The position numbers and the translations under genes were made by a program. Below are positions 1 through 16,607 of a stretch of DNA of 17,588 nucleotides, one piece after another. Position 1 is the first letter of the stretch; each line of letters opens with the position of its first letter. The notes under the pieces were generated by a model. The model saw only the letters and a program-made list of their open reading frames with translations, had not been told where the DNA came from and searched no databases. The DNA comes from a virus (lineage: Duplodnaviria > Heunggongvirae > Uroviricota > Caudoviricetes), in IMG/VR virus record IMGVR_UViG_2734482774_000007, positions 1-17,588 of that record, one strand, 5' to 3'.

Positions 1-1260
1 ATGAAGCTCAACGCCAGACAGGTCGAGACCGCAAAGCCAAAAGACAAAACCTATAAAATGGCCGATGGCGGAGGTCTGTATCTTGAGGTTTCGGCCAAGG
101 GTTCTAAATACTGGCGCATGAAATACAGACGCCCCTCAGACAAAAAAGAGGATCGCCTCGCTTTTGGTGTTTGGCCTACTGTGACGCTTGCTCAGGCAAG
201 AGCAAAGCGCGACGAAGCTAAAAAGCTTTTAGTGCAGGGCATTGATCCAAAAGCCGAACAGAAAGAAGCTCAGGCCGAGAATTCAGGGGCATATACTTTC
301 GAAACCATTGCTCGTGAATGGCATGCCAGTAACAAGCGATGGAGTGAAGACCATCGATCGCGCGTTCTTCGCTATCTTGAGCTTTATATCTTCCCTCATA
401 TCGGTTCGTCCGACATTCGCCAGCTCAAAACCAGCCACCTATTAGCCCCGATTAAAAAAGTTGATGCCAGTGGTAAACACGACGTCGCTCAGCGCCTACA
501 ACAGCGCGTCACGGCCATTATGCGGTATGCGGTACAGAACGATTACATCGACTCAAATCCAGCAAGTGACATGGCCGGTGCGTTATCGACAACCAAAGCA
601 CGACACTATCCAGCTTTACCCTCTAACCGTTTCCCTGAGTTTCTTGCACGTCTTGCTGCATATCGTGGCCGTTTAATGACACGGATTGCAGTCGAGCTTT
701 CCTTACTAACTTTTGTGCGTTCCAGTGAGTTGCGTTTCGCTCGCTGGGATGAATTCGACTTCGATAAATCTCTTTGGCGTATACCGGCAAAACGAGAAGA
801 AATTAAAGGTGTCCGTTACTCGTACCGTGGGATGAAGATGAAAGAGGAGCATATCGTTCCGCTTAGTCGGCAGGCGATGATTTTGTTAGAGCAGCTTAAG
901 CAGATTAGTGGTGATAAAGAGCTACTGTTTCCGGGAGATCATGACGCAACTAAAGTTATGAGTGAAAACACGGTTAACAGTGCTTTGCGCACAATGGGGT
1001 ATGACACAAAAACCGAAGTTTGCGGGCATGGATTCAGAACTATGGCGCGCGGTGCTTTGGGCGAATCAGGGTTGTGGAGTGATGACGCGATAGAACGTCA
1101 GCTAAGCCACTCTGAGCGTAATAGCGTTAGGGCTGCTTATATTCATACTTCAGAGCATTTGGATGAGCGTCGTTTAATGGTTCAGTGGTGGGCCGATTAT
1201 CTTGATGCTAACACTCAGGAATATATAACCCCCTACGACTTTGCAAAAAAAACTATCTAG
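1..1260 (+). CDS. intB: P4-family tyrosine integrase (site-specific recombinase)
   Basis: 419-aa ORF. N-terminal arm-binding region AKPKDKTYKMADGGGLYLEVSAKGSKYWRMKYR; catalytic region with VRSSELRFARW (Arg box), HGFRTMARG (H-x-x-R) and RAAYIHT (catalytic Tyr). ATG sits at nt 1, so the true start could lie upstream of the window. The symbol is inferred from leuX context and nanS at the far end. Confidence 0.85.
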   Translation: MKLNARQVETAKPKDKTYKMADGGGLYLEVSAKGSKYWRMKYRRPSDKKEDRLAFGVWPTVTLAQARAKRDEAKKLLVQGIDPKAEQKEAQAENSGAYTFETIAREWHASNKRWSEDHRSRVLRYLELYIFPHIGSSDIRQLKTSHLLAPIKKVDASGKHDVAQRLQQRVTAIMRYAVQNDYIDSNPASDMAGALSTTKARHYPALPSNRFPEFLARLAAYRGRLMTRIAVELSLLTFVRSSELRFARWDEFDFDKSLWRIPAKREEIKGVRYSYRGMKMKEEHIVPLSRQAMILLEQLKQISGDKELLFPGDHDATKVMSENTVNSALRTMGYDTKTEVCGHGFRTMARGALGESGLWSDDAIERQLSHSERNSVRAAYIHTSEHLDERRLMVQWWADYLDANTQEYITPYDFAKKTI

Positions 1261-1275
1261 CTTTAAAAATTTTAA

Positions 1276-1307
1276 AGTAGGGTCAAAGACCCTACTAATT
1301 ATTTTTT
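1276..1307. terminator. Bidirectional rho-independent terminator between convergent int and herA
   Basis: Perfect 9-bp stem agtagggtc / gaccctact (1276-1284 / 1288-1296) with loop aaa, T-run aattatttttt on the + strand and ttaaaattttt on the - strand. Confidence 0.7.
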
Positions 1308-3020
1308 CCATATATTGCAATAGCCTGGAGAATCAGATTCTGGTGGATATATTGGCTTATCTATCTGGATGGTCATAGGAATAGGGAAGTCAACCCCTAC
1401 AAGAGCAACTTCACCTTGTTTGAGACTTGGTAGAAAAGATGCTGCAGATTTATCAATTTCACCGCATGCACGCTCAACGACTTCTCGATCTCGGTCGTTT
1501 GTTAAGCGATGAACCAATAAGGTTCCAATTTGACTAAGCACACCTTCAGTGATATCTCTGGGTCTTTGAGTTGTTAAGCATATATTAAGGCCATATTTCC
1601 TGCCTTCTTTTGCAATCATCTCAAAAGCGTCAAGTTTAATTGCATGATCTTCAGAACCAACCCGTTTGCCAAGGAAGTTATGGGCTTCATCAACAATAAC
1701 TAACAGCGGTCTTGTTCTGAATTTTTCAAGCCTAGCTAAAGTTAAAAGTTTTCTGCCGATTACATTGGCTAAAATTTCTCTAGCATAAAACTCATAGCTA
1801 ACATCACTTAGGCATAACCTTAGGACTCGTTTATCAGATTGTAAAAAAGTTTCTAATATTTCACCTAGTGTGGATATATCCTCGTTACTATTAAAAACAG
1901 ACCTTAACGAGTTGGCATACGTTACTGCTTGAATTCTGGTTAACAAAGATGAGCAATAGCTTAAGTCTTGAGTTGCAGCGTTTCCCCAAGTATTATCTCC
2001 ATTATCGTAACAACATTCTTGTACAATCTGTTTTATAAGTTTTGTTATATCAAATGGTTGTGATGGATTATCAACAAGTTTAGAGTTGTCTCCAGTATTC
2101 ATTGCGCGTCGATAATCTGTTTTAGGTTGATTGATTTTTTTTAAAATACCATCGGTTGCTATTCTAGGTTCTAAAGCTACTAATCTAAGGCTTTTTATCG
2201 CTTCTTTTAGCTTAGGACCCTGTACTTTTCCAGAAGGATCGAACATGGCAATAAAGTCTGACTCAACAAAGTCGGTAGGTGGAATTCTAAATTCTAAAGA
2301 ATTTATGTTTTTATTTATTGGGGCACCTAAATGGTAATGTAAACAATAATCAGATTTAAACGATCTATACTCACTGGTTGCATCAATTATTATAGTTTTA
2401 GAGTTTTCGTAATTCGAACACTCTTCAATTAACTTGGAAGTTGTCCAACTTTTTCCACCGCCTGTAGCTCCTAAGATAGCACAATGACGACCGAAGAGTT
2501 TATCAGGTTCAACAGTTACTATACTTGTTGCCCCTCCAGATATAATGCCTAATACAATACCTATTCTTTCTTCCTCGTTATCTTTAATTCCTTTATTAAT
2601 TAATTCTGGTATTAAAGAAATAAAATCTAAGGGAGCAGAATAAACTCGATCTCCTAATCGAGGATATGATTTGATTCCTGAATCAATTCTAAAATTTGAA
2701 GGATCAATAGTTCCAAGAAGTTGTATAATGCCGATAGCATCAACTTTGAAGTTTCCTTGAGACCCGACAGATATTTCACCTCTATCTCGCTCTGGTAATT
2801 TAACCTCTATTAAACGGCCAAGAACAATAGATTGTTGTCCTTCTATTAATAATATTTCACCAACTTCTCCTTTTCCATATCTACAACCTTCTATATATGT
2901 TCCGCTGAGTTCCCCTGCATAGATTAAATTTGCTCTAACTGTTTGAGCAAAAATTGATGAGACTACTCCAACCTTAAGGTCGCCCCTCAAAATACCAAGC
3001 TGTAGTGTTGTATTAATCAT
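1299..3020 (-). CDS. herA: HerA-like ATPase, second gene of a SIR2-HerA anti-phage module
   Basis: 573-aa ORF. Walker A GATGGGKSWT and Walker B LLVIVDEAHNF. Start ATG overlaps the upstream gene's stop (ATGA at 3017-3020). Markedly AT-rich codon usage compared with flanking genes. Confidence 0.8.
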   Translation of the reverse strand: MINTTLQLGILRGDLKVGVVSSIFAQTVRANLIYAGELSGTYIEGCRYGKGEVGEILLIEGQQSIVLGRLIEVKLPERDRGEISVGSQGNFKVDAIGIIQLLGTIDPSNFRIDSGIKSYPRLGDRVYSAPLDFISLIPELINKGIKDNEEERIGIVLGIISGGATSIVTVEPDKLFGRHCAILGATGGGKSWTTSKLIEECSNYENSKTIIIDATSEYRSFKSDYCLHYHLGAPINKNINSLEFRIPPTDFVESDFIAMFDPSGKVQGPKLKEAIKSLRLVALEPRIATDGILKKINQPKTDYRRAMNTGDNSKLVDNPSQPFDITKLIKQIVQECCYDNGDNTWGNAATQDLSYCSSLLTRIQAVTYANSLRSVFNSNEDISTLGEILETFLQSDKRVLRLCLSDVSYEFYAREILANVIGRKLLTLARLEKFRTRPLLVIVDEAHNFLGKRVGSEDHAIKLDAFEMIAKEGRKYGLNICLTTQRPRDITEGVLSQIGTLLVHRLTNDRDREVVERACGEIDKSAASFLPSLKQGEVALVGVDFPIPMTIQIDKPIYPPESDSPGYCNIWKK

Positions 3021-4315
3021 AATTGATTGTTAACTCCTACTTGTTTTATTACCTTAGCCAACTGTTCTGCTGGGGTTAATGCTTTAAGATTGGGAACTAA
3101 TTTAACAAAATCACTGAAAGATGCATTTATGAAGTGAATGTCATAACCTGATAGTGAGAGTTGTTTTAGTAAATCCCAATATTTACTAGAACCGTCCCCC
3201 CCTTTATTCCGAATATGAGTTGCACATTTGAAATCTACTATAATCAACCTCATGCTTGGATTGGATTTTATTGCTGAGTAAATTGGTTCAGAAAGATGGT
3301 CATCATTGAAACCAAATCCAGATATAACTAAACAGTTATTTCTTTTTCTCAAGAAATCTAACAATCTTGAAAGTAATTCTAAGTGAGGTTGAATAAAGGC
3401 TTGCTGATATTTACCTTTCGCTGGATATATTAGACATGCGTTTGTTGCTGTTGGTTGGCTGGATTCATATATTTGCCCATCCTTTCTTATCCAACTTACA
3501 GAACCGTGGAGTTTAAATAACTGGAATACGCCCTCTACAAACTCATGCTCGTTTTCATCTCTTTTAACAACATCGTAGTTAAAATATTTACCATCGAATC
3601 TGCGAACTCCTGTATATGAAAGACCATCAACTACCATCATTCCTAATTCAGAAGCAGCTGTTTCAAAGGCTAAATCATAGTTAGTTGTGAAAACTTTTAG
3701 TCTAGGATCTCTGACTCTCCTCCTCCCCATTTTTTGTAATAAATTGATGTAAGCTGAAAGATCACAGTTGCCATCATCAATAAATGAGCGACATTTGTCT
3801 AAAATAATTGTTTTAACTTTATTTAAAAAATTCAACACTTCTTCATCATCATGAAATGCTAAATATGCTTCACAATTAGAAAGAAAGTGTTCTATGTTAG
3901 GATACTCTCGCTCTTTATATTTTACTTTATCACAAACAATTTGAGCATCAGGTTTTAATTGACCATCCTCGTTTATAGAAGATTCACTCCACATTGCACA
4001 CTTCCAGAGATCCCACATGCTTGGTCCTCCAACGTCCCCAAGCGAAGTACCACTCCCAGCGAAGAATGCAAGATTTGGGAATTGTAATGATTTTAGTAAT
4101 AGTTCGTTTATATATGCCTGATTGTCTTTCAACTCCTTCTTTTCACCATCAGTAAGAGATTGTGCTGGAGAAATAGAATCTCCTGACTCTTCTAAACTTT
4201 CATTCGTTATGTAGTCTCGCCAATAAATAAACGATTTACTATCTAATGCTTTCCAGTCGTTACTACCGGGTTTTAAAAATGAGATGTATCCGTCCGGATT
4301 TGTAGTCATAATCAT
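3017..4315 (-). CDS. sir2: SIR2-family (SIR2_2-type) putative NADase, first gene of the SIR2-HerA module
   Basis: 432-aa ORF. Rossmann-like FFAGSGTS, signature VFTTNYDLAFE (catalytic Asn) and FKLHGSVSW (catalytic His). Translationally coupled to herA. AT-rich. Confidence 0.8.
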   Translation of the reverse strand: MIMTTNPDGYISFLKPGSNDWKALDSKSFIYWRDYITNESLEESGDSISPAQSLTDGEKKELKDNQAYINELLLKSLQFPNLAFFAGSGTSLGDVGGPSMWDLWKCAMWSESSINEDGQLKPDAQIVCDKVKYKEREYPNIEHFLSNCEAYLAFHDDEEVLNFLNKVKTIILDKCRSFIDDGNCDLSAYINLLQKMGRRRVRDPRLKVFTTNYDLAFETAASELGMMVVDGLSYTGVRRFDGKYFNYDVVKRDENEHEFVEGVFQLFKLHGSVSWIRKDGQIYESSQPTATNACLIYPAKGKYQQAFIQPHLELLSRLLDFLRKRNNCLVISGFGFNDDHLSEPIYSAIKSNPSMRLIIVDFKCATHIRNKGGDGSSKYWDLLKQLSLSGYDIHFINASFSDFVKLVPNLKALTPAEQLAKVIKQVGVNNQL

Positions 4316-4872
4316 TATCCATTGATGTCATTAAGAGTTTGTTCCCAATAATTTACTACACCACGGCTGGAAGAAAAAGTAATCACAATCACTATCTTTG
4401 ACTACAGTGCGCACAATTATCTTCCCGCCACGCTTGCCCACCTTTAATACACGTGCATGTTTGATCTGAGGTCTTACGATATCTTGTACAGGTAGAGGTT
4501 ACAAGAGTGAGAACCATGCTCACTAAGGATGACAAATCTATAAATATTACCCGTAGCGCCGCTCAGTTTACGTGTGCTGCATCGATACACTGCAGTTCTT
4601 GAATCATTGCGGAGATTTCAGCAACTGCCAGCCAGTATCTCGTCAATCATTGTCACCGCCTGCGCGGCTGAGTTTGCTATTTTCTCCCTTAGCGCGAGCA
4701 GCCCCGCCCGCCTGCCCGCTTCGCTTAACAGACTGGTTTTCATGCACCCCGTAAATCGTCTCAGAAGCCACCACACAAGGGCTTTCGCGTCAAAAATGGC
4801 GCATGAGACTCATGCGTTTTCATGCGCCATAGATATGCACTCATACGCTCTCAGGCCAGCCAGGGAAAAGGC

Positions 4873-4899
4873 GTAAAAAATCCCGGTACTGGACCGGGA
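4873..4899 (-). terminator. Rho-independent terminator downstream of the sid-psu-ogr operon
   Basis: 7-bp stem tcccggt / accggga (4881-4887 / 4893-4899) with loop actgg, followed on the - strand by TTTTTTAC (4873-4880). Lies 22 nt past the ogr-like stop. Confidence 0.65.
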
Positions 4900-4921
4900 C
4901 TTCGTGGTCGTATTTTGCTAA

Positions 4922-5194
4922 TCAGACAGGAATTTGCTGACGGTTTGACAGCTTTGACGCGGAGCCATAGCGATTGAGAGTTTGCTGTTGTTTTTCCGGT
5001 ATTTTTGCTTTGTCTGATTCCTGTTCATTGCACCGAGGCTTCATAATTATCGTATCCACGCTTTCCAGTGCGGTAAATGTGCAGGAACATTCCAGATTCT
5101 GGCACTGATACCATGAGCGTTTAACCGACGGAGCTTCATAGGCGCTGGTTCTGGCGTGAGCGACCGCGCCACATTCAGGACACTTCAGGGCCAT
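4922..5194 (-). CDS. Ogr/Delta-family zinc-finger late transcription activator
   Basis: MALKCPECGAVAHARTSAYEAPSVKRSWYQCQNLECSCTFTALESV matches the P2 Ogr C-x2-C...C-x4-C zinc-finger pattern. ATG at 5192-5194 is preceded by AAGGAG with a 9-nt spacer, 1 nt after the psu stop. The ORF track's longer start at 5296 would overlap psu. Confidence 0.75.
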   Translation of the reverse strand: MALKCPECGAVAHARTSAYEAPSVKRSWYQCQNLECSCTFTALESVDTIIMKPRCNEQESDKAKIPEKQQQTLNRYGSASKLSNRQQIPV

Positions 5195-5195
5195 A

Positions 5196-5750
5196 TCAGC
5201 ACACTCCTTTTTCATTAAGTCGGTTAAGGCGGGCCAGGAAAACTTTATGTTGTGCCGGGGTGAAACTGGCTGAAGCATCAGCGCGCATTGATGCATCCAC
5301 CGTTAATCCGGTTTCGTCGATAATGCTCTTATATGCTGCTGAAATTACCGGAGTACGGACTTCCGTTTGTCGGGCTACAGCGGTTCGTAATATTTTCATT
5401 GCCGCCTCAAGCCCGTATGGTGCACAAAGAAAAGGAGCCAGAGCGTCAGTGAGTGCATCACCATGCTCGCTCATGAAGTTTTCAGTTGCGCTTGTAACAC
5501 AGCTTTCCAGCACAATCTGGTGAGCATAAAGACCATCCCGGGCGGCACAGTTAATCTGCCATTCGAGGAGTGCAAGACGCTCACGAAGATCCTCAAGTTG
5601 GCTGGCATATGCTGCGGGTTTTTCTTCAGTATCCAGCAAAGCAGCCAGACGAAGCTGGCTGGTACTTTGCACATTACGTAGTGTCAGCCAGCTTTTTATT
5701 GCCGCGCGGTAATCGTTGAGAGCTTCCTGAGTAATGGTTCCGGTATTCAT
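5196..5750 (-). CDS. psu: Psu-like polarity suppression protein
   Basis: 184 aa, close to P4 Psu size. Recalled similarity to P4 Psu (ALTDALAP..., ...FTPAQHKVF...). Start overlaps the sid-like stop (ATGA at 5747-5750). SD GAGAAGGA upstream. Confidence 0.7.
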   Translation of the reverse strand: MNTGTITQEALNDYRAAIKSWLTLRNVQSTSQLRLAALLDTEEKPAAYASQLEDLRERLALLEWQINCAARDGLYAHQIVLESCVTSATENFMSEHGDALTDALAPFLCAPYGLEAAMKILRTAVARQTEVRTPVISAAYKSIIDETGLTVDASMRADASASFTPAQHKVFLARLNRLNEKGVC

Positions 5751-6499
5751 TCCTTCTCGCCCCCTTTAGCCATGTCACGCTGTTTAAGCATCCGGGAACG
5801 TGCTGCAGGGCTGGGTGATTGTCTGGCATCCTGTATGGCTTTATCGTCCGCATAAATGCTGATCCCCGGCAGGGCAATATCATCCGTTGAAGATACGTTA
5901 CAGAACAGTGCCGGAGTGGTGAGTTGCTCGCTGATAAATTGCTTCAGCACACTTTCGGGGTCGTTTACGGTATGAACTACACCGATAACAGAAGATGCGC
6001 TTCGGCCCAGAGTCATTTTCAGCAGTCCAAGGATCTGAATAAGTTTCTGGCCGTGTTCCTTCATAAACTCATTCCAGAGCCACACTGCATGAGTTTCAAT
6101 CAGGTGATTATGTTCGCTGATGTAGCGGTTTGCAGCATCCGCAGTTTTCCATGGCAGGAATTCATTTTCTGCAGCCTGAGCAGCCAGCAAATCTTCGAAC
6201 TCATCTAGTGTTTCGCGTCCGAGGGCGATTTCTGCCCGCAGTTTTTTCATTCGTGGCGTCATATTCCCCTGATTCTCACGAAACAGGTTTCGCCATTCAT
6301 CATTAAGCGCCTGCGTCTCCGTTTTTGTATCTTCCTGACGTTTACGGATAGTTTCAGTCATTGCAGCAGCTTCGGTTTGTTTTCGCCGTTCTTCCTGCCA
6401 GACAGCTTTTGCTGCCTTAACTTTTTCCACCGCTTCGCGAATTTTCGGCGGGAGGGTGGGGGTAATGTTTGCATCAGAGATCTGGTTAACAGTTGTCAT
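5747..6499 (-). CDS. Sid-like capsid size-determination (external scaffold) protein, putative
   Basis: 250 aa from the ATG at 6499, which follows a GGAG SD; the track's start at 6532 is a TTG. Helical, charged sequence; position immediately upstream of psu as in the P4 late operon. Assignment is positional and compositional only. Confidence 0.5.
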   Translation of the reverse strand: MTTVNQISDANITPTLPPKIREAVEKVKAAKAVWQEERRKQTEAAAMTETIRKRQEDTKTETQALNDEWRNLFRENQGNMTPRMKKLRAEIALGRETLDEFEDLLAAQAAENEFLPWKTADAANRYISEHNHLIETHAVWLWNEFMKEHGQKLIQILGLLKMTLGRSASSVIGVVHTVNDPESVLKQFISEQLTTPALFCNVSSTDDIALPGISIYADDKAIQDARQSPSPAARSRMLKQRDMAKGGEKE

Positions 6500-6571
6500 G
6501 GCTGCTCCGGTAGTGTTTTGTTGTTGTGTCAATTGTGCCGGGGTCCATACAAGCGCACTACCGAGGAGGAT

Positions 6572-6589
6572 TGTGTCAGTGACTGAACA
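6572..6589 (-). promoter_or_regulatory. Candidate Ogr/Delta-dependent late promoter element (TGT-N12-ACA) upstream of sid
   Basis: TGTgtcagtgactgaACA, centred about 80 bp upstream of the sid ATG. This spacing suits a site centred near -55 with a short leader, as in P2/P4 late promoters. Confidence 0.45.
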
Positions 6590-6665
6590 ATGACCTTGTT
6601 CTGGCTAGCCAGAGAAAGGTGTCATGTCTGATCTACACGCTTCCTTTAATACATACTATTCACCA

Positions 6666-6757
6666 CTGTTCACTTCAATAAAAATATAGTAAATACATGT
6701 GGTTAAGTGGTGTAGTGTTTTAATTAAAGTGATCATCTACTGTTCATGACTGTTCAC
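6666..6757 (+). repeat. Three direct copies of CTGTTCA(C/T) in the divergent control region; the last two overlap a second TGT-N12-ACA (6741-6758)
   Basis: ctgttcac at 6666-6673, ctgttcat at 6740-6747, ctgttcac at 6750-6757. TGTtcatgactgttcACA at 6741-6758. Confidence 0.35.
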
Positions 6758-7404
6758 AGAGATAAAATTAAACATATATTTCTTTTTCATATAAGTCGCG
6801 ATATTTATTTCAGTTTATTACTGGATCTTTTCTCCTCACCAATATTCACCAGTATTCAATACATATTCTATGTAAAGAATAAAAGATGTCTTATATCTGT
6901 TTGATAATTGAACATTCAACCTCCCTGCACTCAGTTGCATTTCAGGAAAATATTCATAAAAATGAATTTGTCTGATGTTCATTAAACACATTCGGATACA
7001 TGCGGAAGTAAGATGGTAATTTAATTTCTTTAATCATCGGATTTATTGATACATATGGTGAGCTGTTTATTTTTGGCCGTTTTTGGCTCTTTTATTAATC
7101 AGGTGTTGTCTTAGTGCTTATGATGTAAAGCCCTGAATGATATGGGCTGGTTCAGATTTGAGCTGTGATCCTGCCTAGTGTAATAGACTTTTTTATTATT
7201 GATGCTCCTTATTATATTCCATAAAGGAATTGTTTGTTTTTGTTCGTTTCATACGGTTTTTAGCTGTTTTATTTTTTGAGAAATCAACATTTCACACAAA
7301 ATAAATAAAGCATGCGCGAGCCGCTTATATAAACATAATAAGGAGCTACCTGAATCCGCATGGAATTGCCCGGACTGTTGTAAACATATTAGAGAGGTAG
7401 CCAG

Positions 7405-7665
7405 ATGAATAGTATTTCCGTTTCCACCCCGGCACCAGCTGCTCCGGTGCTCCCGGTTCCGGCTCAGCAGGAGCGCTTCATACGATTACCTGAAGTGATG
7501 CACCTTTGCGGGCTATCCCGTTCAACCATCTACGACCTTATCAGCCGCGATGCCTTCCCGCAGCAGATATCCCTGGGTGGAAAAAATGTGGCCTGGGTAC
7601 AGTCGGAGGTCAGTGCATGGATGGCGGCGCGAATTGCTGCCCGCGAGCAAGGAGGCCATGCGTGA
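7405..7665 (+). CDS. alpA: AlpA/Vis-family phage transcriptional regulator (excisionase-like HTH)
   Basis: 86 aa. [47 protein letters not shown] fits the AlpA family HTH pattern. SD GAGAGG 7 nt upstream. Sits where P4 carries vis. Confidence 0.8.
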
Positions 7666-7759
7666 AACTTGCTTTGCAGTCTCATCTCCTTTTTTCTGGC
7701 TTGCGTCCTGATATCTTTTCCAGGTATAGTTTTCCCGCTGCCGCAAAATCGGCTGCCGG

Positions 7760-8007
7760 GCGTAGGAACCCGAGTTACTTATTGGCGACACCAGACGCGC
7801 CGTGCGTCTTTTTTTACGTCGTTGCTCAGGCACACCCATTTTTCGGGCTGCGGTGCTTATACCTTAGCCCCTTTCAGATAATGGTGGTCCGGGCGGGGCA
7901 GCCTTCGGGCTGGCCGGTTTCCAATAAGGCCGGTATTCCTACCCCCGTTCGGGTCACCACCCATGAGCGTAGGAACTCCGGTGGTGGCATTTACCGCTAC
8001 TTATTGG
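7760..8007 (+). promoter_or_regulatory. P4-type RNA immunity region: seqA-like (7760-7785), seqB/CI-like (7921-7942), seqC-like (7967-8007)
   Basis: A and C share the identical 10-mers gcgtaggaac and tacttattgg. B (ccaataaggccggtattcctac) carries the reverse complements ccaataag and ttcctac, so B can pair with either A or C. The region also holds several GC stems, including a UUCG-loop hairpin ggcagccttcgggctg near 7897. Confidence 0.45.
7793..7815 (+). terminator. Rho-independent terminator directly after the seqA-like element
   Basis: Stem agacgc / gcgtct (7793-7798 / 7804-7809) with loop gccgt, followed by a 7-T run to 7815. Confidence 0.6.
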
Positions 8008-8209
8008 AGGTTGCCCTTATGGCTACGATCCTCGCCCCGTCACATCCTCAATTTATATTTGTTTTTGCCGCCGTTCGTCGTGCAGAACGTAAACCACGTA
8101 TCAGTATGCTGCGTATCATCGCCAGCAATGAGCATCATGCACGTCTTTCACTGGTCCATGAGTATGTGCTTTGTCTTGCTGCTCGCCTGCCTGTCCGGGA
8201 GGTGATCTA

Positions 8210-8434
8210 ATGAATCACGCCGCAATCTCTTATGACGATATTCTCCGCCTGAAGCATCTTCGTAACGTGGGAGAGTTTGTCACTGGAATGGCTGTTCTTC
8301 AGGATTGCTACGAAAAACCTGCCAGTGCTCAATGTGAACAACTGGTTTCCCTGATTTATCTGATGACAGAGCAGCTTGATGGCGTGGTACAGCGTTGCCA
8401 GGATGACCTCATGAACATGGAGGTGGTGCAATGA
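8210..8434 (+). CDS. Hypothetical small protein in the satellite left operon
   Basis: 74 aa from the ATG at 8210, which follows SD GGGAGG with a 7-nt spacer. Stop overlaps the next ORF's start (ATGA at 8431-8434). Confidence 0.55.
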
Positions 8435-8754
8435 AATCACGCACTCTTTCCCTTTCACTTCGGGTAGCGTTGTATCGCCGCGCGGTAGCCTGCGCCTGGT
8501 TGAGTGCCTGCTATCAGCAAAACCGCCATCTGCAGCTCACTCTGGATGAAATTGAAACCGCTATTGCCCGTGAGCTTGAAGGATTTTATCTGCGACAGCA
8601 CGGGCAAACAAAAGGCATGGAAATCGCCTGCGCCCTGCTTTCAGACCTGATGGAATACGGCCCTCTAATGTCCTGTCCCGCACTCTCCCAGCTCGGAATA
8701 GCCGTAATGGATGAGTTATGCGTCCGTCACATCAAAAAGCCGGTTTTACACTGA
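8431..8754 (+). CDS. Hypothetical protein in the satellite left operon, immediately upstream of the primase
   Basis: 107-aa ORF, translationally coupled to the upstream ORF and ending 14 nt before the primase start. Confidence 0.55.
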
Positions 8755-8768
8755 GGGAGAACTGCGTC

Positions 8769-11102
8769 ATGTCAGGAATGAAAGTCAGTCAGGCCGTGAA
8801 GGCTGCCCGCGGTCACTGGGCTCAGATTCTGCCAGCGCTGGGCGTGAATATATTGAAAAATCGCCATCAGCCTTGCCCGGTCTGTGGCGGTAAAGATCGT
8901 TTTCGCTTCGACGATCAGGAAGGACGCGGAACATGGTTCTGCAATCAGTGCGGAGCCGGGGATGGTTTAGCGCTTGTCACCAGGGCACTGAATGTGGATA
9001 TCAGTGAAGCAGCTGACAGGATACATGGACTGACACATGATCTGTCTATAGTTAATTCCGAGGTCAGGACGTTAACCGCCGATACCGATAGCGGGAAAGA
9101 TGCAGCGGCAGCACTTGCCGCGCGACTGCTGCAAGCCTCGCGTGAATCTGCCGGAAACACTTATCTTACACATAAAGGTTTCCCGGAGCATATTTGCCAT
9201 GAGCTGACTTCAGCTCATAAGGCCGGTGGTGTGATGTTCCGCCCCGGTGATTTGATCGTCCCACTCTATAACGCTGACGGGGAGCTGGTGAATATTCAGC
9301 TTATCAGTGGCAATGGTAGCAAGTGTTTTCTTAAAGGAGGTCAGGTTAAGGAGGCCTATCATCTGATAGAAGGGGGCGGGAGTTCTGTAAGAAGGATTTG
9401 GATTGCGGAAGGTTACGCCACGGCGCTTACCATTCATTATTTGACAGGAGAAGCCGTCATGGTGGCATTTTCGTCGGTCAACTTTCTTTCTCTGAGCAGC
9501 GTTGCCCATAATAAGTATCCTGGATATCAGTTAATTATTGCAGCGGACCGCGATCTGAATGGTTCAGGCCAGAACAGGGCTGAAACTGCTGCAAAAGCGA
9601 GTCAGTGTGACATTGTGCTGCCACCGGTTTTTGGTGACTGGAATGATGCGCTTACCCAATACGGAGAGGAATCCACCCGGAAGGCAATTCTTGAGGCTTT
9701 GAAGCCACATAACGCCAGTCCTTTCGACACAATGAGTGAAGCAGAATTCACAGCGATGAGTGTCAGCGAAAAAGCTCAGAGGGTTCGGGAGCATTACAGG
9801 GATGCACTGGCGGTTGATCCGAACGGGCAGCTTTTATCCCGCTACGAGTCTGGAGCGTGGAAAGTTATTTCTCAGTCAGATTTTGCCCGAGATGTCGCAG
9901 CCCTTTTCCAGCGCCTCGGGGCACCGTTTTCCTCAGGAAAAATTGCCTCACTGGTGGAAACATTAAAGTTAATTGTTCCGCAGCAGCAAAATCCGTCACG
10001 TCATCTGATTGGTTTTCGTAATGGCGTTCTCGATACGCGAACAGGGCTTTTTAGTCCGCACTGTAAAGAGAACTGGCTGCGTACCCTGTGTGAAGTCGAT
10101 TTCACGCCACCGGTAAAGGGGGAAACGCTTGAAACTCATGCCCCGGCATTCTGGCGTTGGTTGGACCGGGCCGCCGGACACAAGCCAGCAAAACGCGACA
10201 TTATTCTTGCAGCGTTATTTATGGTGCTGGCGAACCGTTATGACTGGCAGCTCTTTCTGGAAGTGACTGGCCCTGGTGGAAGTGGCAAAAGTATTCTGGC
10301 TGAAATTGCGACCATGCTTGCTGGAGAGGATAACGCCACCTCTGCGACCATTGAAACGCTGGAGTCCCCGCGAGAACGTGCGGCTCTGATAGGTTTTTCT
10401 CTTATTCGCCTGCCTGATCAGGAGAAGTGGAGCGGCGACGGCGCCGGGCTTAAGGCTATAACTGGTGGCGATGCAGTATCTGTGGACCCCAAATATCAGA
10501 ATGCTTATTCAACACATATTCCGGCGGTTATCCTGGCCGTAAATAATAATCCTATGCGCTTCACTGATCGCAGTGGTGGTGTGTCCCGCAGGAGAGTTAT
10601 TCTGCATTTTCCTGAGCAGATAGCACCGGAAGAACGCGATCCGCAGTTGAAAGATAAAATTGCACGAGAACTGGCTGTGATTGTTCGTCAGCTCATGCAG
10701 CGTTTCAGCGATCCGATGAGCGCCAGAACATTGCTTCAGTCGCAGCAGAATTCTGATGAGGCTCTCACCATCAAGCGTGATGCTGATCCAGCATTTGATT
10801 TTTGTGGCTACCTTGAGGCATTACCTGACACCAACGGCATGTTTATGGGGAACGCCAATATTGTCCCGCGCCAGCCACGTACGTACCTTTACCATGCCTA
10901 TCTCGTATACATGGAGGCTAATGGCTTTAAAAATACCCTTAGCCTGACAATGTTTGGCAAAGGGCTACCAGTTATGCTGAAGGAATACGGGCTAAATTAT
11001 GAGAAGCGGCGAACTAATCAGGGAATGCAGACTAACCTCACTTTAAAAGAGGAAAGTAATGCAGACTGGCTTCCCAAGTGTGATGAGCTAACAATCAAAT
11101 AA
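8769..11102 (+). CDS. P4 alpha-type primase-helicase
   Basis: 777 aa from the ATG at 8769 (SD GAGGGAGA 9 nt upstream); the track's 8718 start is non-ATG. Zinc-binding primase motif CPVCGGKDRFRFDD...CNQCG; Walker A GPGGSGKS in the C-terminal helicase part. Length equals that recalled for P4 alpha. Confidence 0.9.
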   Translation: MSGMKVSQAVKAARGHWAQILPALGVNILKNRHQPCPVCGGKDRFRFDDQEGRGTWFCNQCGAGDGLALVTRALNVDISEAADRIHGLTHDLSIVNSEVRTLTADTDSGKDAAAALAARLLQASRESAGNTYLTHKGFPEHICHELTSAHKAGGVMFRPGDLIVPLYNADGELVNIQLISGNGSKCFLKGGQVKEAYHLIEGGGSSVRRIWIAEGYATALTIHYLTGEAVMVAFSSVNFLSLSSVAHNKYPGYQLIIAADRDLNGSGQNRAETAAKASQCDIVLPPVFGDWNDALTQYGEESTRKAILEALKPHNASPFDTMSEAEFTAMSVSEKAQRVREHYRDALAVDPNGQLLSRYESGAWKVISQSDFARDVAALFQRLGAPFSSGKIASLVETLKLIVPQQQNPSRHLIGFRNGVLDTRTGLFSPHCKENWLRTLCEVDFTPPVKGETLETHAPAFWRWLDRAAGHKPAKRDIILAALFMVLANRYDWQLFLEVTGPGGSGKSILAEIATMLAGEDNATSATIETLESPRERAALIGFSLIRLPDQEKWSGDGAGLKAITGGDAVSVDPKYQNAYSTHIPAVILAVNNNPMRFTDRSGGVSRRRVILHFPEQIAPEERDPQLKDKIARELAVIVRQLMQRFSDPMSARTLLQSQQNSDEALTIKRDADPAFDFCGYLEALPDTNGMFMGNANIVPRQPRTYLYHAYLVYMEANGFKNTLSLTMFGKGLPVMLKEYGLNYEKRRTNQGMQTNLTLKEESNADWLPKCDELTIK

Positions 11103-11110
11103 TTACAACT

Positions 11111-11137
11111 AACCCGGCTGATGCCGGGTTTCTTATT
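11111..11137 (+). terminator. Rho-independent terminator after the primase gene
   Basis: 8-bp stem aacccggc / gccgggtt with loop tgat, followed by tcttatt. Confidence 0.6.
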
Positions 11138-11453
11138 GGAAACGTACGAATGTAGAGATAGCAGTTCACTCTTCACCTAACTGTTAATACATAACCAATT
11201 GATATATAAATTAAAAGTTGCAGAGTGAATAGTGTGCATGGTTTTGCGAAAAAAAAGTATTTTTTGTTGAGTCAAGTCCCGGTTTGGATCCGTTTAACGG
11301 AACCTAACTGGATTGACTATTTCTTCGATAATTTTTGGATAAATAATCAACAAAAATCAAAATGTGAACAGCGAATGGAGGGGGCACAAAAGGGGGCATA
11401 ATTGAATTAATTATTAATAAAATCCATTTTTTACAACAATTTAAATGAATATG

Positions 11454-11473
11454 CGAGTCCGGCCTTCGCACCA
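11454..11473 (+). repeat. attR: direct repeat of the 3' end of tRNA-Leu (leuX)
   Basis: cgagtccggccttcgcacca resembles the recalled leuX 3' end (T-loop end, T-stem, acceptor stem, CCA) with one G missing. Upstream sequence is not tRNA-like, so only the 3' core is duplicated. Confidence 0.6.
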
Positions 11474-11489
11474 CACCGTATGCAAATCG

Positions 11490-11513
11490 AGCCGCTCAAG
11501 AGCGGCTTTTTTT
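11490..11513 (+). terminator. Rho-independent terminator following the tRNA-3'-end repeat (displaced native tRNA terminator)
   Basis: Stem agccgctc / gagcggct with a short loop, followed by a 7-T run. Confidence 0.6.
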
Positions 11514-11697
11514 GTGTCTGAAATCCGTTAGTTACCTATCTTTCTCGCTATTTTAACTCTCTCAGGGCTAACCAATTCCAACCCATCGCAAACGAAAAAT
11601 GTTGGTACAGGCGTTGGTATTTTCGGTTCGACATTAATTTGTATTAGCTCAGTCCTGATCTGACAGCTATCTGCCAGATCAGGTTCGGATTAATACA

Positions 11698-12548
11698 TTA
11701 TATCTGCCCGCCTACACCTTTAAACTTCTCAATAAACGCGACGATCTTCTGGAAAACCGTCTGTTTTTTCGTCTTATATTGCGGATTTAACGGACTGAGT
11801 TTTGGCAATGTCTCGTTTAATTCCGTGCCATTTTCGGTGGCGTATTCGCGTTTTAAAGACGTGCGAATATAGCGTTTCGCCGCCTCTTCATTGAGATTTT
11901 CTTCTTTGATCAAGGCTTCTGCTTCACGTTGCTGTTCGCGTTGAGCAAAGGTAAAAAACGCGTCAATGATGCTGGCTTTATCCGGCAAATCATCCAGGTT
12001 CGTTTGCTGAATAAAATCGACCACCAGACCTTCTTTGGCACGGTTACCAAGGCTCGAACGAATTAAGCGCTTGACCTCTTCGGTCATTTCGCCCTTACCT
12101 TTGTTTTGTCTGTTGTGTTCGAAAATCAGTCCAAGGATATAATCCAGGTTTATTTCCTGAGACTTCAGCAAATCGACCTCAAAAACCACGTCATCCCAGT
12201 CGGTGGTTGATTTTTCTTTTTTGTCAGCTTCTTTCTCACGGCGCTGCCAGTCACGAATATCGTTATAGGCTGAACGATAATCCTGAATCTTGCGATCAGC
12301 AGGGAGACGAATTATTTGCAATTCAGCGAGCTTTTCATCATCCACATAATGTTCTGCTTTGAATTTTTCTACTGCAACAGGATCACTAAGATCGATTTGT
12401 TGCAGGGCTTTCAGCGTGGCAAATTCATCATAGTTTTGCAGGATGTTCTCGGCACGCAGGTATTCACCAAACAGTTTTACGAAGTCTTTCTTCTCTTTTT
12501 CACTTTCAATATTGGCAGGGTCAGGGAACCGTTGTTCCAGTTCTGAAA
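11698..12548 (-). pseudogene. Type I restriction enzyme R subunit (HsdR) C-terminal fragment
   Basis: The frame is open from about 12545 to the stop at 11698 (about 283 codons) with no plausible ATG/RBS at its 5' end. Helical sequence ([10 protein letters not shown]..., [43 protein letters not shown]) resembles the conserved HsdR C-terminal domain as recalled. No helicase or nuclease motifs are present. Confidence 0.5.
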
Positions 12549-12803
12549 CTAGATGAAGTAGCCTTTGGTTTTGATGGCATCGTCTTTAATGTCATCAGTT
12601 ATTACGCTGTCATCCAGTTTCGCATAACAGATACTGTCATCACCGGCTTCAATATAGCTGGAAAAATTTTCGCTGATAAAACGGTAGAAAAGCGCGCCCA
12701 GAACGTATTGCTTAAAGTCCCATCCATCGACCGAACCTCTGACATCGTTAGCAATTTGCCAGATCTGGCGATGAAGCTCCGCGCGCTGCTGAAGACTGGT
12801 CAT
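12549..12803 (-). pseudogene. Type I R-M methyltransferase (HsdM) N-terminal fragment, truncated after 84 codons
   Basis: LQQRAELHRQIWQIANDVRGSVDGWDFKQYVLGALFYRFISENF is a typical HsdM N-terminal domain signature. Good RBS (AAGGA, 6-nt spacer) at the ATG at 12803. The frame ends in TAG and continues in another frame into the HsdR-like sequence, with no methyltransferase motifs. Confidence 0.65.
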
Positions 12804-13109
12804 TTTTTATCCTTTGAATGTGTTTTTAACGTCGGCTTTTGCCGGGATTTTACCGGAAGTTTTTTGGTTTTTCAGATTTGTATGATGGTGAGGAGGGGAT
12901 TCAGCACCAGATTGTTAGTGCATCTTACTCAGCATTCACCGCTTGAGTCAGGAGGCTACTTTATATGTCCATCGTCCATCCGTAGGTGATCAGATAATTT
13001 ATTGCGAGTCACCTTCCCGATTTTCAATCTCATTATTTACCCAATCTTTCACCAGTGGATAATTCGTCTGCTACTAACGGCGAGTGTATTTTTTTACGGA
13101 TGAAAGATT

Positions 13110-13943
13110 ATGCAAACAGAAGCTGAAGTCTTAACCGATCATAACGAACTAATTTGCTCGACCAGTATTGAGCGTATCGTCACAGGACGTGATAGTGCAC
13201 TGAACCAGATAGCGGCGTTAATCCAAAAGCTTGATGATATCTCCAGCCTGACATCCAGTATTGGCGGTGATGTGGCTGGAACCTGGGCAATGCGTAATGG
13301 ATATGCCTTTGATTGCTGGCTGATGCAGCCAACCGACAAAGCGATGCCGGTGATCACCCGAAATATCGATCGCAGTATCTGGCGCGATCTCATGCTGAAG
13401 TCCGGGATGTTGACTCTGATGGATGCCGAAGCCCGCAGTCAGTGGGCAAAGAACCTGGAGGAGGGCGATCTCCCGGCGATTAGCGAAGCCAACATCCTGA
13501 GTACCTTTGAACAACTTCACCACAATAAGCAGGACGTTTTCGAACGTGGGATTATCAATGTATTTAAGGGATTAAGCTGGGACTACAAAACCAATAATCC
13601 CTGTTATTTCGGTAAGAAGATTATCGTTAACAATCTGGTGAAGCATGACAGATGGGGCTACAGCCTGAACTGGGGCTGGCGGCGAGATCAGCTTGCCGAT
13701 CTGGAACGGATGTTCTATCTGCTGGATGGGAAGACCATTCCCGATAACCGGCATGATGTTGCGATTCGGTTTATGGACTTCGTTAGTGCTCACCCGCATG
13801 AACAGGTATTTGATGACGATTTATTTGTCATCCGCTATTACCAGAAAGGCAGTGGGCATATCACTTTCAAGCGACTGGATCTGGTGGATAAGATGAATGA
13901 TATCGTGGCGAAGCACTTTCCGTCAGCGTTATCAGCAAAATGA
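13110..13943 (+). CDS. Hypothetical protein (277 aa) immediately upstream of the AbiE pair
   Basis: Long ORF with ordinary codon usage and no motif I can assign by eye. Ends 70 bp before the AbiEi-like start on the same strand. Confidence 0.6.
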   Translation: MQTEAEVLTDHNELICSTSIERIVTGRDSALNQIAALIQKLDDISSLTSSIGGDVAGTWAMRNGYAFDCWLMQPTDKAMPVITRNIDRSIWRDLMLKSGMLTLMDAEARSQWAKNLEEGDLPAISEANILSTFEQLHHNKQDVFERGIINVFKGLSWDYKTNNPCYFGKKIIVNNLVKHDRWGYSLNWGWRRDQLADLERMFYLLDGKTIPDNRHDVAIRFMDFVSAHPHEQVFDDDLFVIRYYQKGSGHITFKRLDLVDKMNDIVAKHFPSALSAK

Positions 13944-14012
13944 ATGTCGTATGTTTGCTATCTAAAATGTCGTATTTTTGCTACTCTTTATGCAATGACT
14001 CTGGAGGCGAAT

Positions 14013-14408
14013 ATGACGATAAAAGCACGCATTCAGTCACGACTGAAACGTTCTAAACGTTACGTATTCACTCGTGACGACTTTAAAGATATTGCAGGCT
14101 ACGATCAGGTTGGTCGGGTATTGCGCGAGCTTGTCAGGGAAGGGCAACTGTTGAAGGTTGGTTATGGCGTGTATACCAAAGCACGGCGGAACGGTATTAC
14201 AGGCAAGGTAATGCCAGCGGCTCCCGGAGGCTCTTCAGCGGTGATTGTCGAAACGCTGGAACGCCTGAAAGTACGCTATCGTTTTGCTGGCGCAACGCAG
14301 GCATACAATAGCGGTACTTCTACGCAGATCCCAGCTTCACCCGAGATAAAAACCCCCCGGCGTTTTAAACGCGTATTATCTGTAGGGAACAGCAGATTAA
14401 ATGGATGA
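14013..14408 (+). CDS. AbiEi-family antitoxin / transcriptional regulator (type IV TA, abortive infection)
   Basis: 131 aa from the ATG at 14013 (SD GGAGG, 5-nt spacer). N-terminal RYVFTRDDFKDIAGYDQVGRVLRELVREGQLLKVGYGVYTKA fits the AbiEi winged-helix pattern. Stop overlaps the AbiEii start by 8 nt. Confidence 0.7.
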   Translation: MTIKARIQSRLKRSKRYVFTRDDFKDIAGYDQVGRVLRELVREGQLLKVGYGVYTKARRNGITGKVMPAAPGGSSAVIVETLERLKVRYRFAGATQAYNSGTSTQIPASPEIKTPRRFKRVLSVGNSRLNG

Positions 14409-15348
14409 TTTAACCACTCTTTTTTCTGAAGTGGCTGACGCGCTTGGTATTGAGTCTGTCGCAATTGTGGAAAAAGATCACTATATCGTTGAGCTTTTGC
14501 AATTGCTTAAACCTCTGGTGTTCGATACTCATCAATTGGTATTTGCCGGAGGAACCGCTCTGGCAAAATCAGGTGTCGCACTTAATCGCATGTCGGAAGA
14601 TGTGGATATCAAACTGGTGCCTAAGGATGCATTTCAGGCACTTTCCCGCACTCAGCGAAAAAATACCCGTAAAGAAATTGTTCAGGCAGTTTCCAGTGCA
14701 ATAGCTTCATCGGGTGTGTTCAATTTTGATGATGATTACCCAAAAGTGACGCGGGATGAATATCGTTATAATGACATACCTGTTCGTTATCCACAGCGAG
14801 TAGTGCAGGCACCTTGTTTGCGTCCTTTTATCCGGCTGGAATTGATGGAAGCGAAGTTACTGGAGCCTTCTGAATTACGGGATATTCATTCACTGGTAAC
14901 AGGGATCACGGGAAAAGCGGCTATTGTTTCAGCGTTTCCATGCGCAACTATCATTAGCTCACAGGCAGAAAAGCTGGTGGCGATGTTACGTCGTACTGCG
15001 GCAGTTGTGCGAGATGTTGAGCGATTTGATGATGCATCGCTGGTACGTCATATCTACGATACAAACTGTATTGTTGAGACGAGTCATGTTGATATGAGTC
15101 TGCTCGTTGATTTTGTTCAACAAACTATTGAGCAGGACATTCAGCGTTACGGCAACCAGTACCCGCAGTTTTGCGCGTCTCCAGTTGATGAGCTAAAAAT
15201 GGGACTGGATGAGTTGGCGAACAATCCTCTCTACGAGATGCGCTATCAGCAGTTTGTTTCGCCAATGGTGTATGGAGAGCGAAAGATCACATGGGATGAG
15301 GCTTACTCCAGGTTTAGGAGCTTAGCGCTAGCCATCCTGAATGCTTGA
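14401..15348 (+). CDS. AbiEii-family nucleotidyltransferase toxin (type IV TA, abortive infection)
   Basis: 315 aa. Nucleotidyltransferase motif LVFAGGTALAKSGVALNRMSEDVDIKL (GG...S-E-D-x-D) near the N-terminus. Confidence 0.8.
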   Translation: MDDLTTLFSEVADALGIESVAIVEKDHYIVELLQLLKPLVFDTHQLVFAGGTALAKSGVALNRMSEDVDIKLVPKDAFQALSRTQRKNTRKEIVQAVSSAIASSGVFNFDDDYPKVTRDEYRYNDIPVRYPQRVVQAPCLRPFIRLELMEAKLLEPSELRDIHSLVTGITGKAAIVSAFPCATIISSQAEKLVAMLRRTAAVVRDVERFDDASLVRHIYDTNCIVETSHVDMSLLVDFVQQTIEQDIQRYGNQYPQFCASPVDELKMGLDELANNPLYEMRYQQFVSPMVYGERKITWDEAYSRFRSLALAILNA

Positions 15349-15385
15349 TATGCAGCATTGTCTTTACTTGAAATTCTGAAATTCT

Positions 15386-15571
15386 CTAAACCATAGAGAT
15401 GATTTTTATGATCCAGTCTTTCTCTTGTTGAGATAGTTCCAGTTTGCTCACTCGTGTTAAGAAGGTATTGATCACCTGAACATCCGAATTGGTGAGCCTA
15501 TTTAATAGAGCGGGTGGTATACCTTTACTAACAATCGCTTTGCGGTGACTTTCGTAGTTTTTATTACTCAT
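15386..15571 (-). CDS. Small hypothetical protein (61 aa)
   Basis: ATG at 15569-15571 preceded by GAGGA with a 6-nt spacer. AT-rich. No recognisable motif. Confidence 0.4.
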   Translation of the reverse strand: MSNKNYESHRKAIVSKGIPPALLNRLTNSDVQVINTFLTRVSKLELSQQEKDWIIKIISMV

Positions 15572-15636
15572 TGTTGATCCTCAAATATCATTGTATGGCG
15601 GCATTGATCGTTTCCAGCAACCTTTACTTACTCACT

Positions 15637-15813
15637 TCAAACTGCATCCTCGTAGACTGTTCCACTACAATAATCGAAAAGGCGTGGATGTCCATTCAGG
15701 TATCCCGCTAATACGTATAGCAATAACAATGGTTTATGCGGTGCGCGCTGTTCACCCTTATGCCAGATTTTTATATTGGCAATTGCCTGCTGTAGCGATT
15801 TACTGGAAGCCAT
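15637..15813 (-). CDS. Small hypothetical protein (about 58 aa from the internal ATG)
   Basis: The track ORF starts at a TTG (15870). The internal ATG at 15811-15813 (MASSKSLQQ...) is preceded by AGGGA with a 5-nt spacer. Could be a fragment. Confidence 0.3.
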   Translation of the reverse strand: MASSKSLQQAIANIKIWHKGEQRAPHKPLLLLYVLAGYLNGHPRLFDYCSGTVYEDAV

Positions 15814-15949
15814 TGATATCCCTGGCAGTGAAATAATTGCGATCATGCTCGCAAATTTTCTGCTGTTCAAGCCTGCAAGTGAAGATATATTACTTTGATC
15901 TCATTTGTTTTTTTGCTGCTTGTTCTGAGAACGTATAAGGACATTCTCT

Positions 15950-16600: not shown

Positions 16601-16607
16601 TGAACGC

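Follow-up and report, generated by a model that had tools for sequence, protein, structure and literature searches.

A P4-like satellite with a predicted SIR2-HerA cargo in leuX of Escherichia coli and the one-base-shorter core of its attR site

Gene content and extent of the element

The DNA stretch analysed here (17,588 nucleotides, positions 1 to 17,588 of the IMG/VR virus record IMGVR_UViG_2734482774_000007; hereafter the window) carries genes of a P4-like phage satellite. Positions 1-11473, together with about 163 bp to the left of position 1, very probably represent such a satellite, integrated by a P4-type integrase (Int) into the tRNA-Leu(CAA) gene leuX of Escherichia coli, at its 3' end, and perhaps still mobilisable. 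The element is of a known kind with a known cargo, and exactly this element is already present in public RefSeq genomes. Its core genes are the following (aa, amino acids):

1..1260, plus strand: int, tyrosine integrase of P4 type, 419 aa (P4 Int: 96% aa identity; Pfam Arm-DNA-bind_3, Phage_int_M, Phage_integrase)
4922..5194, minus strand: delta, single-domain Ogr/Delta late-gene activator, 90 aa (Pfam Ogr_Delta, 7.3e-17; first half of P4 delta: 43% identity)
5196..5750, minus strand: psu, polarity suppression and capsid decoration protein, 184 aa (Pfam Psu, 2.7e-35; 27% identity to P4 Psu)
5747..6499, minus strand: capsid size determination gene of sid type, 250 aa (P4 Sid: 23% identity over 187 aa, pairwise E 4e-7; Pfam Psu family, 4e-8; P4-like position)
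7405..7665, plus strand: vis/alpA, excisionase-regulator, 86 aa (Pfam Phage_AlpA, 4.2e-20; 64% identity to P4 orf88/Vis)
8769..11102, plus strand: alpha primase-helicase, 777 aa (P4 alpha: 73% identity over 773 aa; Zn_Ribbon_Prim, Toprim_3, D5_N, DUF5906, Pox_D5)

An initial annotation, made from the letters alone, had described these genes as intact open reading frames (ORFs) in P4 order. All named core ORFs in 1-11473, including the 777-aa alpha, are indeed present and uninterrupted, and every core gene was assigned by Pfam to the expected family. No pseudogene is flagged inside the element in the two RefSeq copies that were opened (L001 and L002). Concerning the order, the claim stands in part: the components are co-localised within 11.1 kb and largely follow the P4 layout (int-cargo-delta-psu-sid-alpA-Ash-alpha), but psu and delta are swapped, the late operon reading sid-psu-delta instead of sid-delta-psu. 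The same sid-psu-delta order occurs in another E. coli P4-like element, from an O157 strain.

In tblastn searches with the proteins of the P4 reference (NC_001609), matches were obtained for Int (96% identity), alpha (73%), orf106 (70%), Vis (64%), the cI region (63%), delta (43%, one of two domains) and Psu (27%). P4 Sid, epsilon, orf151, gop, beta and cII gave no tblastn match in the window; Sid was recovered by direct pairwise comparison after this miss, which upholds the proposed Sid-like gene. Measured against the published seven-component definition of P4-like satellites (PMC8628076), integrase, psu, delta, sid, alpA/vis and alpha are matched, the homology of sid being weak.

The genome comparison bore out a shared backbone with P4. 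Common to both are the leuX site and the att architecture (a core of the same 20-bp family and GGGGGCA arm repeats on both sides), an alpha protein of 777 aa, orf106 and vis, a CI RNA immunity region, type-1-like iterons at the ori and crr positions, a late operon with sid, psu and delta, and a cos site between this operon and an accessory slot. The length, too, is close to that of P4, as had been proposed: the insertion, counted from where the attL core ends to where the attR core ends, is about 11,636 bp long, compared with 11,624 bp. Unlike P4, the element carries SIR2-HerA in the slot instead of gop/beta/cII, its delta has one Ogr domain (90 aa) instead of two (166 aa), epsilon and orf151 are replaced by a 74-aa ORF, the cos sequence is not GGCGAGGCGGGGAAAGCAC, crr is about half as long, and the attR core lacks one G. 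In these points, and in the operon order mentioned above, the likeness to P4 ends.

P4-like satellites have been reported from almost half of E. coli genomes. Compared with the E. coli P4-likes with defence hotspots (Rousset et al. 2022, PMC9122126; Moura de Sousa and Rocha 2021, PMC8628076), the element belongs to the same class, with a variable psu-int slot by cos, and shows no substantive difference. The cryptic element at leuX of strain K-12 (intB, PR-Y) has the same target tRNA but is an integrase pseudogene remnant without satellite genes. It might also be considered that the window holds a generic integrase-borne leuX island which carries a primase by chance and depends on no helper, since leuX is a stacking site for islands and relics of other islands lie directly downstream. 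This has hardly any probability at all, since it is already contradicted by the gene content: sid, psu, delta, cos, the CI RNA and the P4 gene order are all present, and the element has the components that define P4-like satellites, the seventh (Ash/epsilon) being represented by an Ash-family ORF.

Integration at leuX

No tRNA gene is found in the window, and leuX therefore had to be checked in near-identical genomes and by an empty-site test. In the near-identical genomes L001 and L002 a tRNA-Leu(CAA) gene ends 163 bp before the start of int, which agrees with the tRNA-Leu that the initial annotation had expected upstream of position 1. For the empty-site test, leuX from a near-identical genome was joined to the window sequence right of 11473, and the junction was searched in E. 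coli genomes. The reconstructed unoccupied site was found contiguous, in one piece and with 99% identity, in 2363 of 5426 genomes. In strain WAT, for example, leuX ends with GGCACCA and is followed directly by CACCGTATGCAAATCGAGCC..., which is the window flank with its hairpin terminator. As leuX directly adjoins this flank in WAT, the terminator is the native leuX terminator and the boundaries of the insertion are exact. The attachment features within the window are:

11379..11401, plus strand: two Int arm-type sites, AGGGGGCACAA and AGGGGGCATAA, in the alpha-side att arm (the only GGGGGCAY sites in the window; they align with the P4 arm repeats 4151-4174)
11455..11473, plus strand: attR core, equal to the P4 20-bp core GAGTCCGGCCTTCGGCACCA minus one G (unique string; alignment with P4 attP and leuX)
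11489..11508, plus strand: native leuX terminator in the chromosomal flank, outside the element (hairpin and T-run; directly after leuX in unoccupied sites)

Compared with the unoccupied site the insertion is precise, with attR in the window, attL in L001 and L002, and cores that differ by one base. The att arms and the core align with P4 attP, and three further GGGGGCA arm repeats lie within the 163 bp left of the window. For the window itself we expect the same left sequence, i.e. leuX ending with GGCACCA, then TTAGTACTTCC... with GGGGGCA arm repeats. Thus a P4-like satellite at leuX with an identifiable attR is confirmed by the P4 protein identities, the att alignment, the tRNA-Leu(CAA) in relatives and the unoccupied site. 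The 20-nt near-copy of the tRNA end noticed earlier past the primase occurs once in the window (11454-11473, 352 bp after the alpha stop; 0 expected by chance), and the tRNA-type terminator noticed behind it is the native one listed above. The string matches the 3' end of leuX as had been claimed, but it has one G fewer than the leuX/attL core.

At least 20 complete E. coli genomes carry the same element, with 99.5-100% identity over 96% of a 12-kb query. Nearly identical copies are found at three distinct right-hand junctions, namely those of the window, of XDL and of ES4. We list both observations as support for a recent mobility of the element, as far as this may be read from genome comparison. 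The right junction of the window, in which the native leuX terminator is combined with a truncated hsdR, does not occur in the complete-genome collection.

In a three-way alignment, the flank 11474-11650 is homologous to the K-12 spacer between leuX and intB (L084 291-470; 72% mean column identity). The homology includes the terminator, with compensatory changes in the stem, and a shared GTTGGTACAG...GGTATTT.CGGTTCGA segment. This flank probably corresponds to an integrase-proximal arm that belonged to an older leuX island.

The missing G in the attR core

The core reads GAGTCCGGCCTTCGGCACCA in P4 attP, in leuX and in attL, while the attR of the window reads GAGTCCGGCCTTCG-CACCA. The attR sites of XDL and ES4 likewise lack the G, and their right flanks differ from that of the window and from each other. 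In IMG/VR we detected 39 sites with a G-less core, none of them behind a tRNA body, with diverse alpha-side arms and right flanks. An alpha homolog lies upstream in at least 33 of the 39, and another integrase gene follows about 190 bp downstream in at least 15; many G-less sites are hybrid junctions with such a second integrase. In six IMG/VR contigs a G-less core is found 10.6-12.7 kb away from an intact core in leuX. With the same TTT left context, an intact core was seen at one IMG/VR site only.

A scan without selection on the right half of the core returned about 40 G-less sites, 3 with the G and a small number of other variants. Of the 40 top-ranking E. coli matches to the P4 alpha-side arm, about 36 are one base shorter than P4 and 4 have the full length; both full-length matches that were opened (2 of the 4) contain an intact core. 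These comparisons of sequenced sites show the G-less core to be the usual state at P4-like attR sites and not a private decay. A sequencing error in the run of Gs was considered and rejected, the G-less state being present in many independent assemblies. Random decay of attR was rejected as well, given the 39 IMG/VR sites and the ratio of about 40 to 3 in the unselected scan.

What follows the core is also informative. A G-less core stands before a K-12-type flank that in K-12 directly follows an intact leuX, and before a P4-type int arm at 13 metagenome sites. Five G-less sites continue with CGCAC-TCA and not with CGCAC-CA. At the attR sites L078 12402, L106 10744, L138 13093, L161 7972 and L169 3585, GAGTCCGGCCTTCGC(A/C)C is followed by TCA... 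and not by CA..., the flanks being homologous but diverged.

In the usual reading of tRNA islands, the identity block extends from the crossover to the tRNA gene's 3' end, and the displaced fragment is free to mutate. The 20-nt repeat would then be a leuX 3' fragment displaced by a crossover in the T-loop region, which later suffered a private one-base deletion in this lineage. The deposited attP core of P4, a perfect 20-bp copy, fits this explanation. The same deletion at the 39 IMG/VR sites, the predominance of G-less sites in the unselected scan, the many different arms and flanks involved and the shortened arm in some 36 of the 40 top E. coli matches all speak against it, and we regard it as highly improbable. 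Moreover, a T-loop crossover would make the core halves at the hybrid junctions and beside the K-12-type flank functional tRNA ends at the time of integration, and hence intact; since they are observed without the G, a crossover 3' of the G is favoured.

We therefore propose a different course of events, in which the G-less core would be the element's own attP sequence and would travel with it. Strand exchange would take place 3' of the position of the missing G, within GCACCA. Excision would then regenerate an intact leuX, and the mismatch in attR would be no defect. Two observations weigh against this placement of the crossover. The intact 20-bp core is found in phage P4 itself and in a minority of prophages, and the excised attP of the element was not found in IMG/VR, GenBank phages or PLSDB. 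The attP searches in these three collections gave only P4 itself, tandem hybrid sites and a mis-filed chromosomal fragment; the attP-like matches in metagenomes are hybrid sites beside another integrase and not demonstrable circles. A literature search for a mapped P4 crossover site yielded nothing usable.

Alternatively it might be that the one-base heterology between attR and attL blocks excision, and that the element is a domesticated P4-like remnant, locked into the chromosome and now only a SIR2-HerA island. According to this explanation the deletion recurs at the cleavage site of Int, and prophages with it are over-represented since they are unable to leave. The differing cores are in line with this, as is the dominance of the G-less core at prophage attR sites while P4 and a few prophages are intact. 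The spot also appears mutable, since some attR sites show a 2-5-fold expansion of the 8-bp unit TTCGCACC. On the other side, all three junctions of the nearly identical element are G-less, so that repeated independent deletions would be needed, which makes recurrent deletion the less parsimonious reading. G-less cores beside flanks that once adjoined a functional tRNA end, and beside flanks that do not continue with CCA, are also better explained by a sequence borne by the element. Taken together with the gene content (see below), we consider a locked-in remnant improbable.

The unit TTCGCACC was seen at attR sites whose flank starts with ATCGGAACATC. It is present there in 1 to 5 tandem copies across genomes, with five in E. 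coli ES4 (L002 ~17466-17505; also L028, L031 and L034). The tandem copies could be due to replication slippage or could be a by-product of integrase action.

Late operon, cos site and likely helper

Besides the genes delta, psu and sid, the late region of the element contains the following sites:

4692..4747, minus strand: predicted cos packaging site of a non-P2/P4 sequence type (colinear with P4 cos; match to a P2-family prophage)
4875..4899, minus strand: terminator-like hairpin and T-run closing the sid-psu-delta operon (TCCCGGT-CCAGT-ACCGGGA-TTTTTT; read by eye and absent from the pattern-scan listing)
6534..6637, either strand: three TGT-N12-ACA dyads just upstream of sid (motif matches)

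Four of the five TGT-N12-ACA matches in the window fall within 6534-6758. The dyads at 6534-6637 are putative binding sites for Ogr/delta and may represent P_sid.

Neither an exact nor a fuzzy search of the window for the P2/P4 cohesive end GGCGAGGCGGGGAAAGCAC gave a convincing match. The cos site was located instead by colinear alignment with P4 and by matches to P2-family prophages. Window positions 4693-4747 show 93% identity over 55 bp to a site in E. coli Z1323PEC0014 that lies 155 bp beyond the portal gene of a P2-family prophage, and cos sites of this type contain ...GGCAGGCGGGCGGGGCTGC.... A Klebsiella P2-like phage has a canonical cos variant at the same place (a partial match, obtained with a short query only), and two other E. 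coli P2-like prophages have a third variant. Across 860 genomes the backbone is conserved from cos itself (about 4686-4701) onwards, and the variable hotspot lies left of it.

On the strength of the cos match to the Z1323PEC0014 prophage type, the likely helper is a particular P2-family lineage, and not P2 or 186. In the collections searched this lineage appears to be rare. A 22-mer of cos, scanned against species-representative genomes, gave two P4-likes (Scandinavium and Pseudocitrobacter), one chance match and no helper. At least three cos core sequences were seen at the same post-portal position in P2-family prophages and phages (L006 4001-4055; L082 and L083 ~800-860; L004 3411-3433). That P4-likes share one or another of the helper cos variants suggests that satellite and helper are matched by cos type. 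A 41-aa "hypothetical protein" annotated in XDL (window 4618-4743) lies across cos, and this annotation is doubtful.

Regulation, immunity and replication

Between the sid operon and vis/alpA lies an AT-rich spacer of 870 bp. The regulatory and replication region comprises, apart from vis/alpA and alpha:

6657..6859, plus strand: ori-like cluster of P4 type-1 octamer iterons T[GAC]TTCA[CT] (5 in 300 bp compared with 1.6 per kb elsewhere, P ~1e-4)
7662..8210, plus strand: Ash/Icd-like ORF overlapping the RNA genes, 182 aa (Pfam Phage_ASH; NCBIfam phage_ICD_like at aa 131-178)
7737..7814, plus strand: isrK-type leader RNA with terminator (Rfam isrK, 72.1 bits; seqA-like CI target 7757-7786, complementary to 7920-7947)
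7877..7964, plus strand: CI (C4-family) immunity RNA (Rfam C4, 83.4 bits, full length; seqB-like segment 7917-7947; 74% nucleotide identity to the P4 cI region)
7969..8008, plus strand: seqC-like target complementary to the CI RNA (inverted repeats 7930-7942/7969-7981 and 7920-7928/8000-8008)
8210..8434, plus strand: 74-aa ORF at the position of P4 epsilon/orf151 (no Pfam or NCBIfam match)
8431..8754, plus strand: DUF5375 protein, homolog of P4 orf106 (Pfam DUF5375, 2.4e-48; 70% identity to P4 orf106)
11111..11130, plus strand: alpha terminator (terminator pattern scan)
11164..11451, either strand: crr-like region with four type-1 iterons (4 in 351 bp, P ~0.003)

The RNA immunity region suspected earlier was thus recovered by the Rfam matches to C4/CI and isrK. 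Segment 7917-7947 of the CI RNA shows complementarity, in two blocks, with 7757-7786 upstream and 7969-8008 downstream, which presumably corresponds to the seqA/seqB/seqC layout of P4 immunity.

The public 182-aa "Icd-like/Ash" coding sequence runs through the isrK and CI RNA genes, and its annotation is doubtful. Of the ORF 7662-8210 only the C-terminal Icd-like part (about 8052-8195, the last ~48 aa) is likely a real protein. Although the satellite component is named "Ash (also called epsilon)" in the literature (PMC8628076), the Ash Pfam family matches the obsolete "cI ORF" of P4 and not epsilon, which belongs to PF25738. The 74-aa ORF resembles, by size and position only, a 75-aa family that is present in 61% of P4-likes and absent from P4 (PMC8628076). 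In the same study the P4 cnr gene is placed in the family found at the location of 8431-8754, and an identification of this gene as cnr is one by position.

The type-1-like octamers, which are degenerate, are enriched about 7- to 10-fold at 6657-6859 and 11164-11451 compared with the rest of the window. For alpha, the longest ORF begins at 8718 (794 aa); in P4 alpha and in the RefSeq models the start corresponds to 8769 (777 aa).

SIR2-HerA cargo and downstream flank

In the slot between cos and int, where P4 carries gop/beta/cII, two genes are found:

1299..3020, minus strand: HerA-like ATPase, second gene of the pair (PADLOC HerA, 1.7e-166; Pfam DUF87/HerA_C; distant match to solved SIR2-HerA complexes)
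3017..4315, minus strand: SIR2-family protein, first gene of the pair (PADLOC SIR2, 7e-82; Pfam SIR2_2; PDB 8j4u-type SIR2, 2.3e-20)

They lie on the same strand with a 4-bp overlap and form one operon. By their sequence, 1299-4315 is a predicted SIR2-HerA anti-phage pair. Its GC content is 34-40%, compared with 48-52% for the backbone. SIR2+HerA is among the systems described from the P4 psu-int hotspot next to cos (PMC9122126). By sequence and PADLOC models it is the same two-gene system as in the solved SIR2-HerA complexes (PDB 8j4u, 8su9, 8wld and related), but the window proteins are distant from these (HerA E 1e-23 to 3.5e-31, mostly in the C-terminal ATPase part; SIR2 E ~2e-20). The initial annotation had passed over the pair, two large intact genes.

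Downstream of the element, 11698-12345 (minus strand) encodes no more of a type I restriction HsdR than its C-terminal 215 aa (PADLOC REase_I, 2.6e-69). In WAT an intact hsdR-hsdS-hsdM directly follows leuX at the same locus; the window lacks about 4.85 kb present there between locus positions 7778 and 12629, with the junction near 12550. A cluster of defence type follows at 13110-16600:

13110-13943: DUF4942 gene
13944-15348: AbiEi/AbiEii (PADLOC, 3e-53 and 1.3e-126)
15950-16600: HNH endonuclease

For the ORF 16608-17588, the best-matching genomes list a sialate O-acetylesterase (nanS) among the features under the match.

Proposed life cycle and mobility

In the integrated state, the host would be protected via SIR2-HerA, and the CI RNA with its seqA- and seqC-like targets would provide immunity. 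When a P2-family helper with the same cos type becomes active, the element would excise and replicate. Int and Vis would serve integration and excision, and alpha with the ori- and crr-like iterons replication. The sid-psu-delta operon behind the TGT-N12-ACA dyads would redirect capsid size and activate the late genes of the helper, and the 11.6-kb genome would be packaged into small capsids made of helper proteins.

The intact genes, the cos site, the replication iterons, the targets of the immunity RNA and the three junction contexts are compatible with mobilisability. The sequence is consistent with a satellite that may still be mobilised, given a helper with matching cos and provided that the absence of a P4-type epsilon is tolerated or compensated. 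Several points weigh against this picture. No homolog of P4 epsilon, the derepressor of the helper (PF25738), or of orf151 was detected in the window by tblastn and family searches, and the Sid protein shows just 23% identity to P4 Sid. Only one E. coli genome yielded a helper with matching cos, the other P2-like prophages inspected having a different cos, and a search of phage records with the spacer between cos and the hotspot gave nothing at E<1e-3 and no matching phage record. In addition, the window lacks attL, the int-proximal att arm of about 163 bp lying left of position 1, and the complete E. coli genomes searched do not include the one it comes from; in this collection no match spans both the satellite and the window flank. 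The missing epsilon and the rare helper would also suit an element locked into the chromosome. That explanation is opposed by the integrity of all genes and cis sites and by a size held at the P4 packaging length.

Taking att and cos together, it may be that most natural P4-likes possess an attP core without one G, that P4-family integrases exchange strands within the 5-6 bp that close the tRNA gene (GCACCA), that the "20-bp identical core" of P4 is a minority variant, and that the type of cos ties this satellite lineage to a rare lineage of P2-family helpers, and not to P2 or 186. For this combined proposal as a whole, we consider the chances of its being right or wrong to be evenly balanced.

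The element itself adds little, as the family, the hotspot and the SIR2+HerA cargo have been described before (PMC9122126, PMC8628076). As a checkable example it has its use: the limits of the insertion are exact, the type of cos points to the likely helper lineage, and the cis sites are listed in full. For the P4-like family an imperfect attR repeat is usual and is no evidence of decay. A crossover 3' of the G, if true, would refine the reading of the att sites of P4-family integrases when islands in tRNA genes are mapped.

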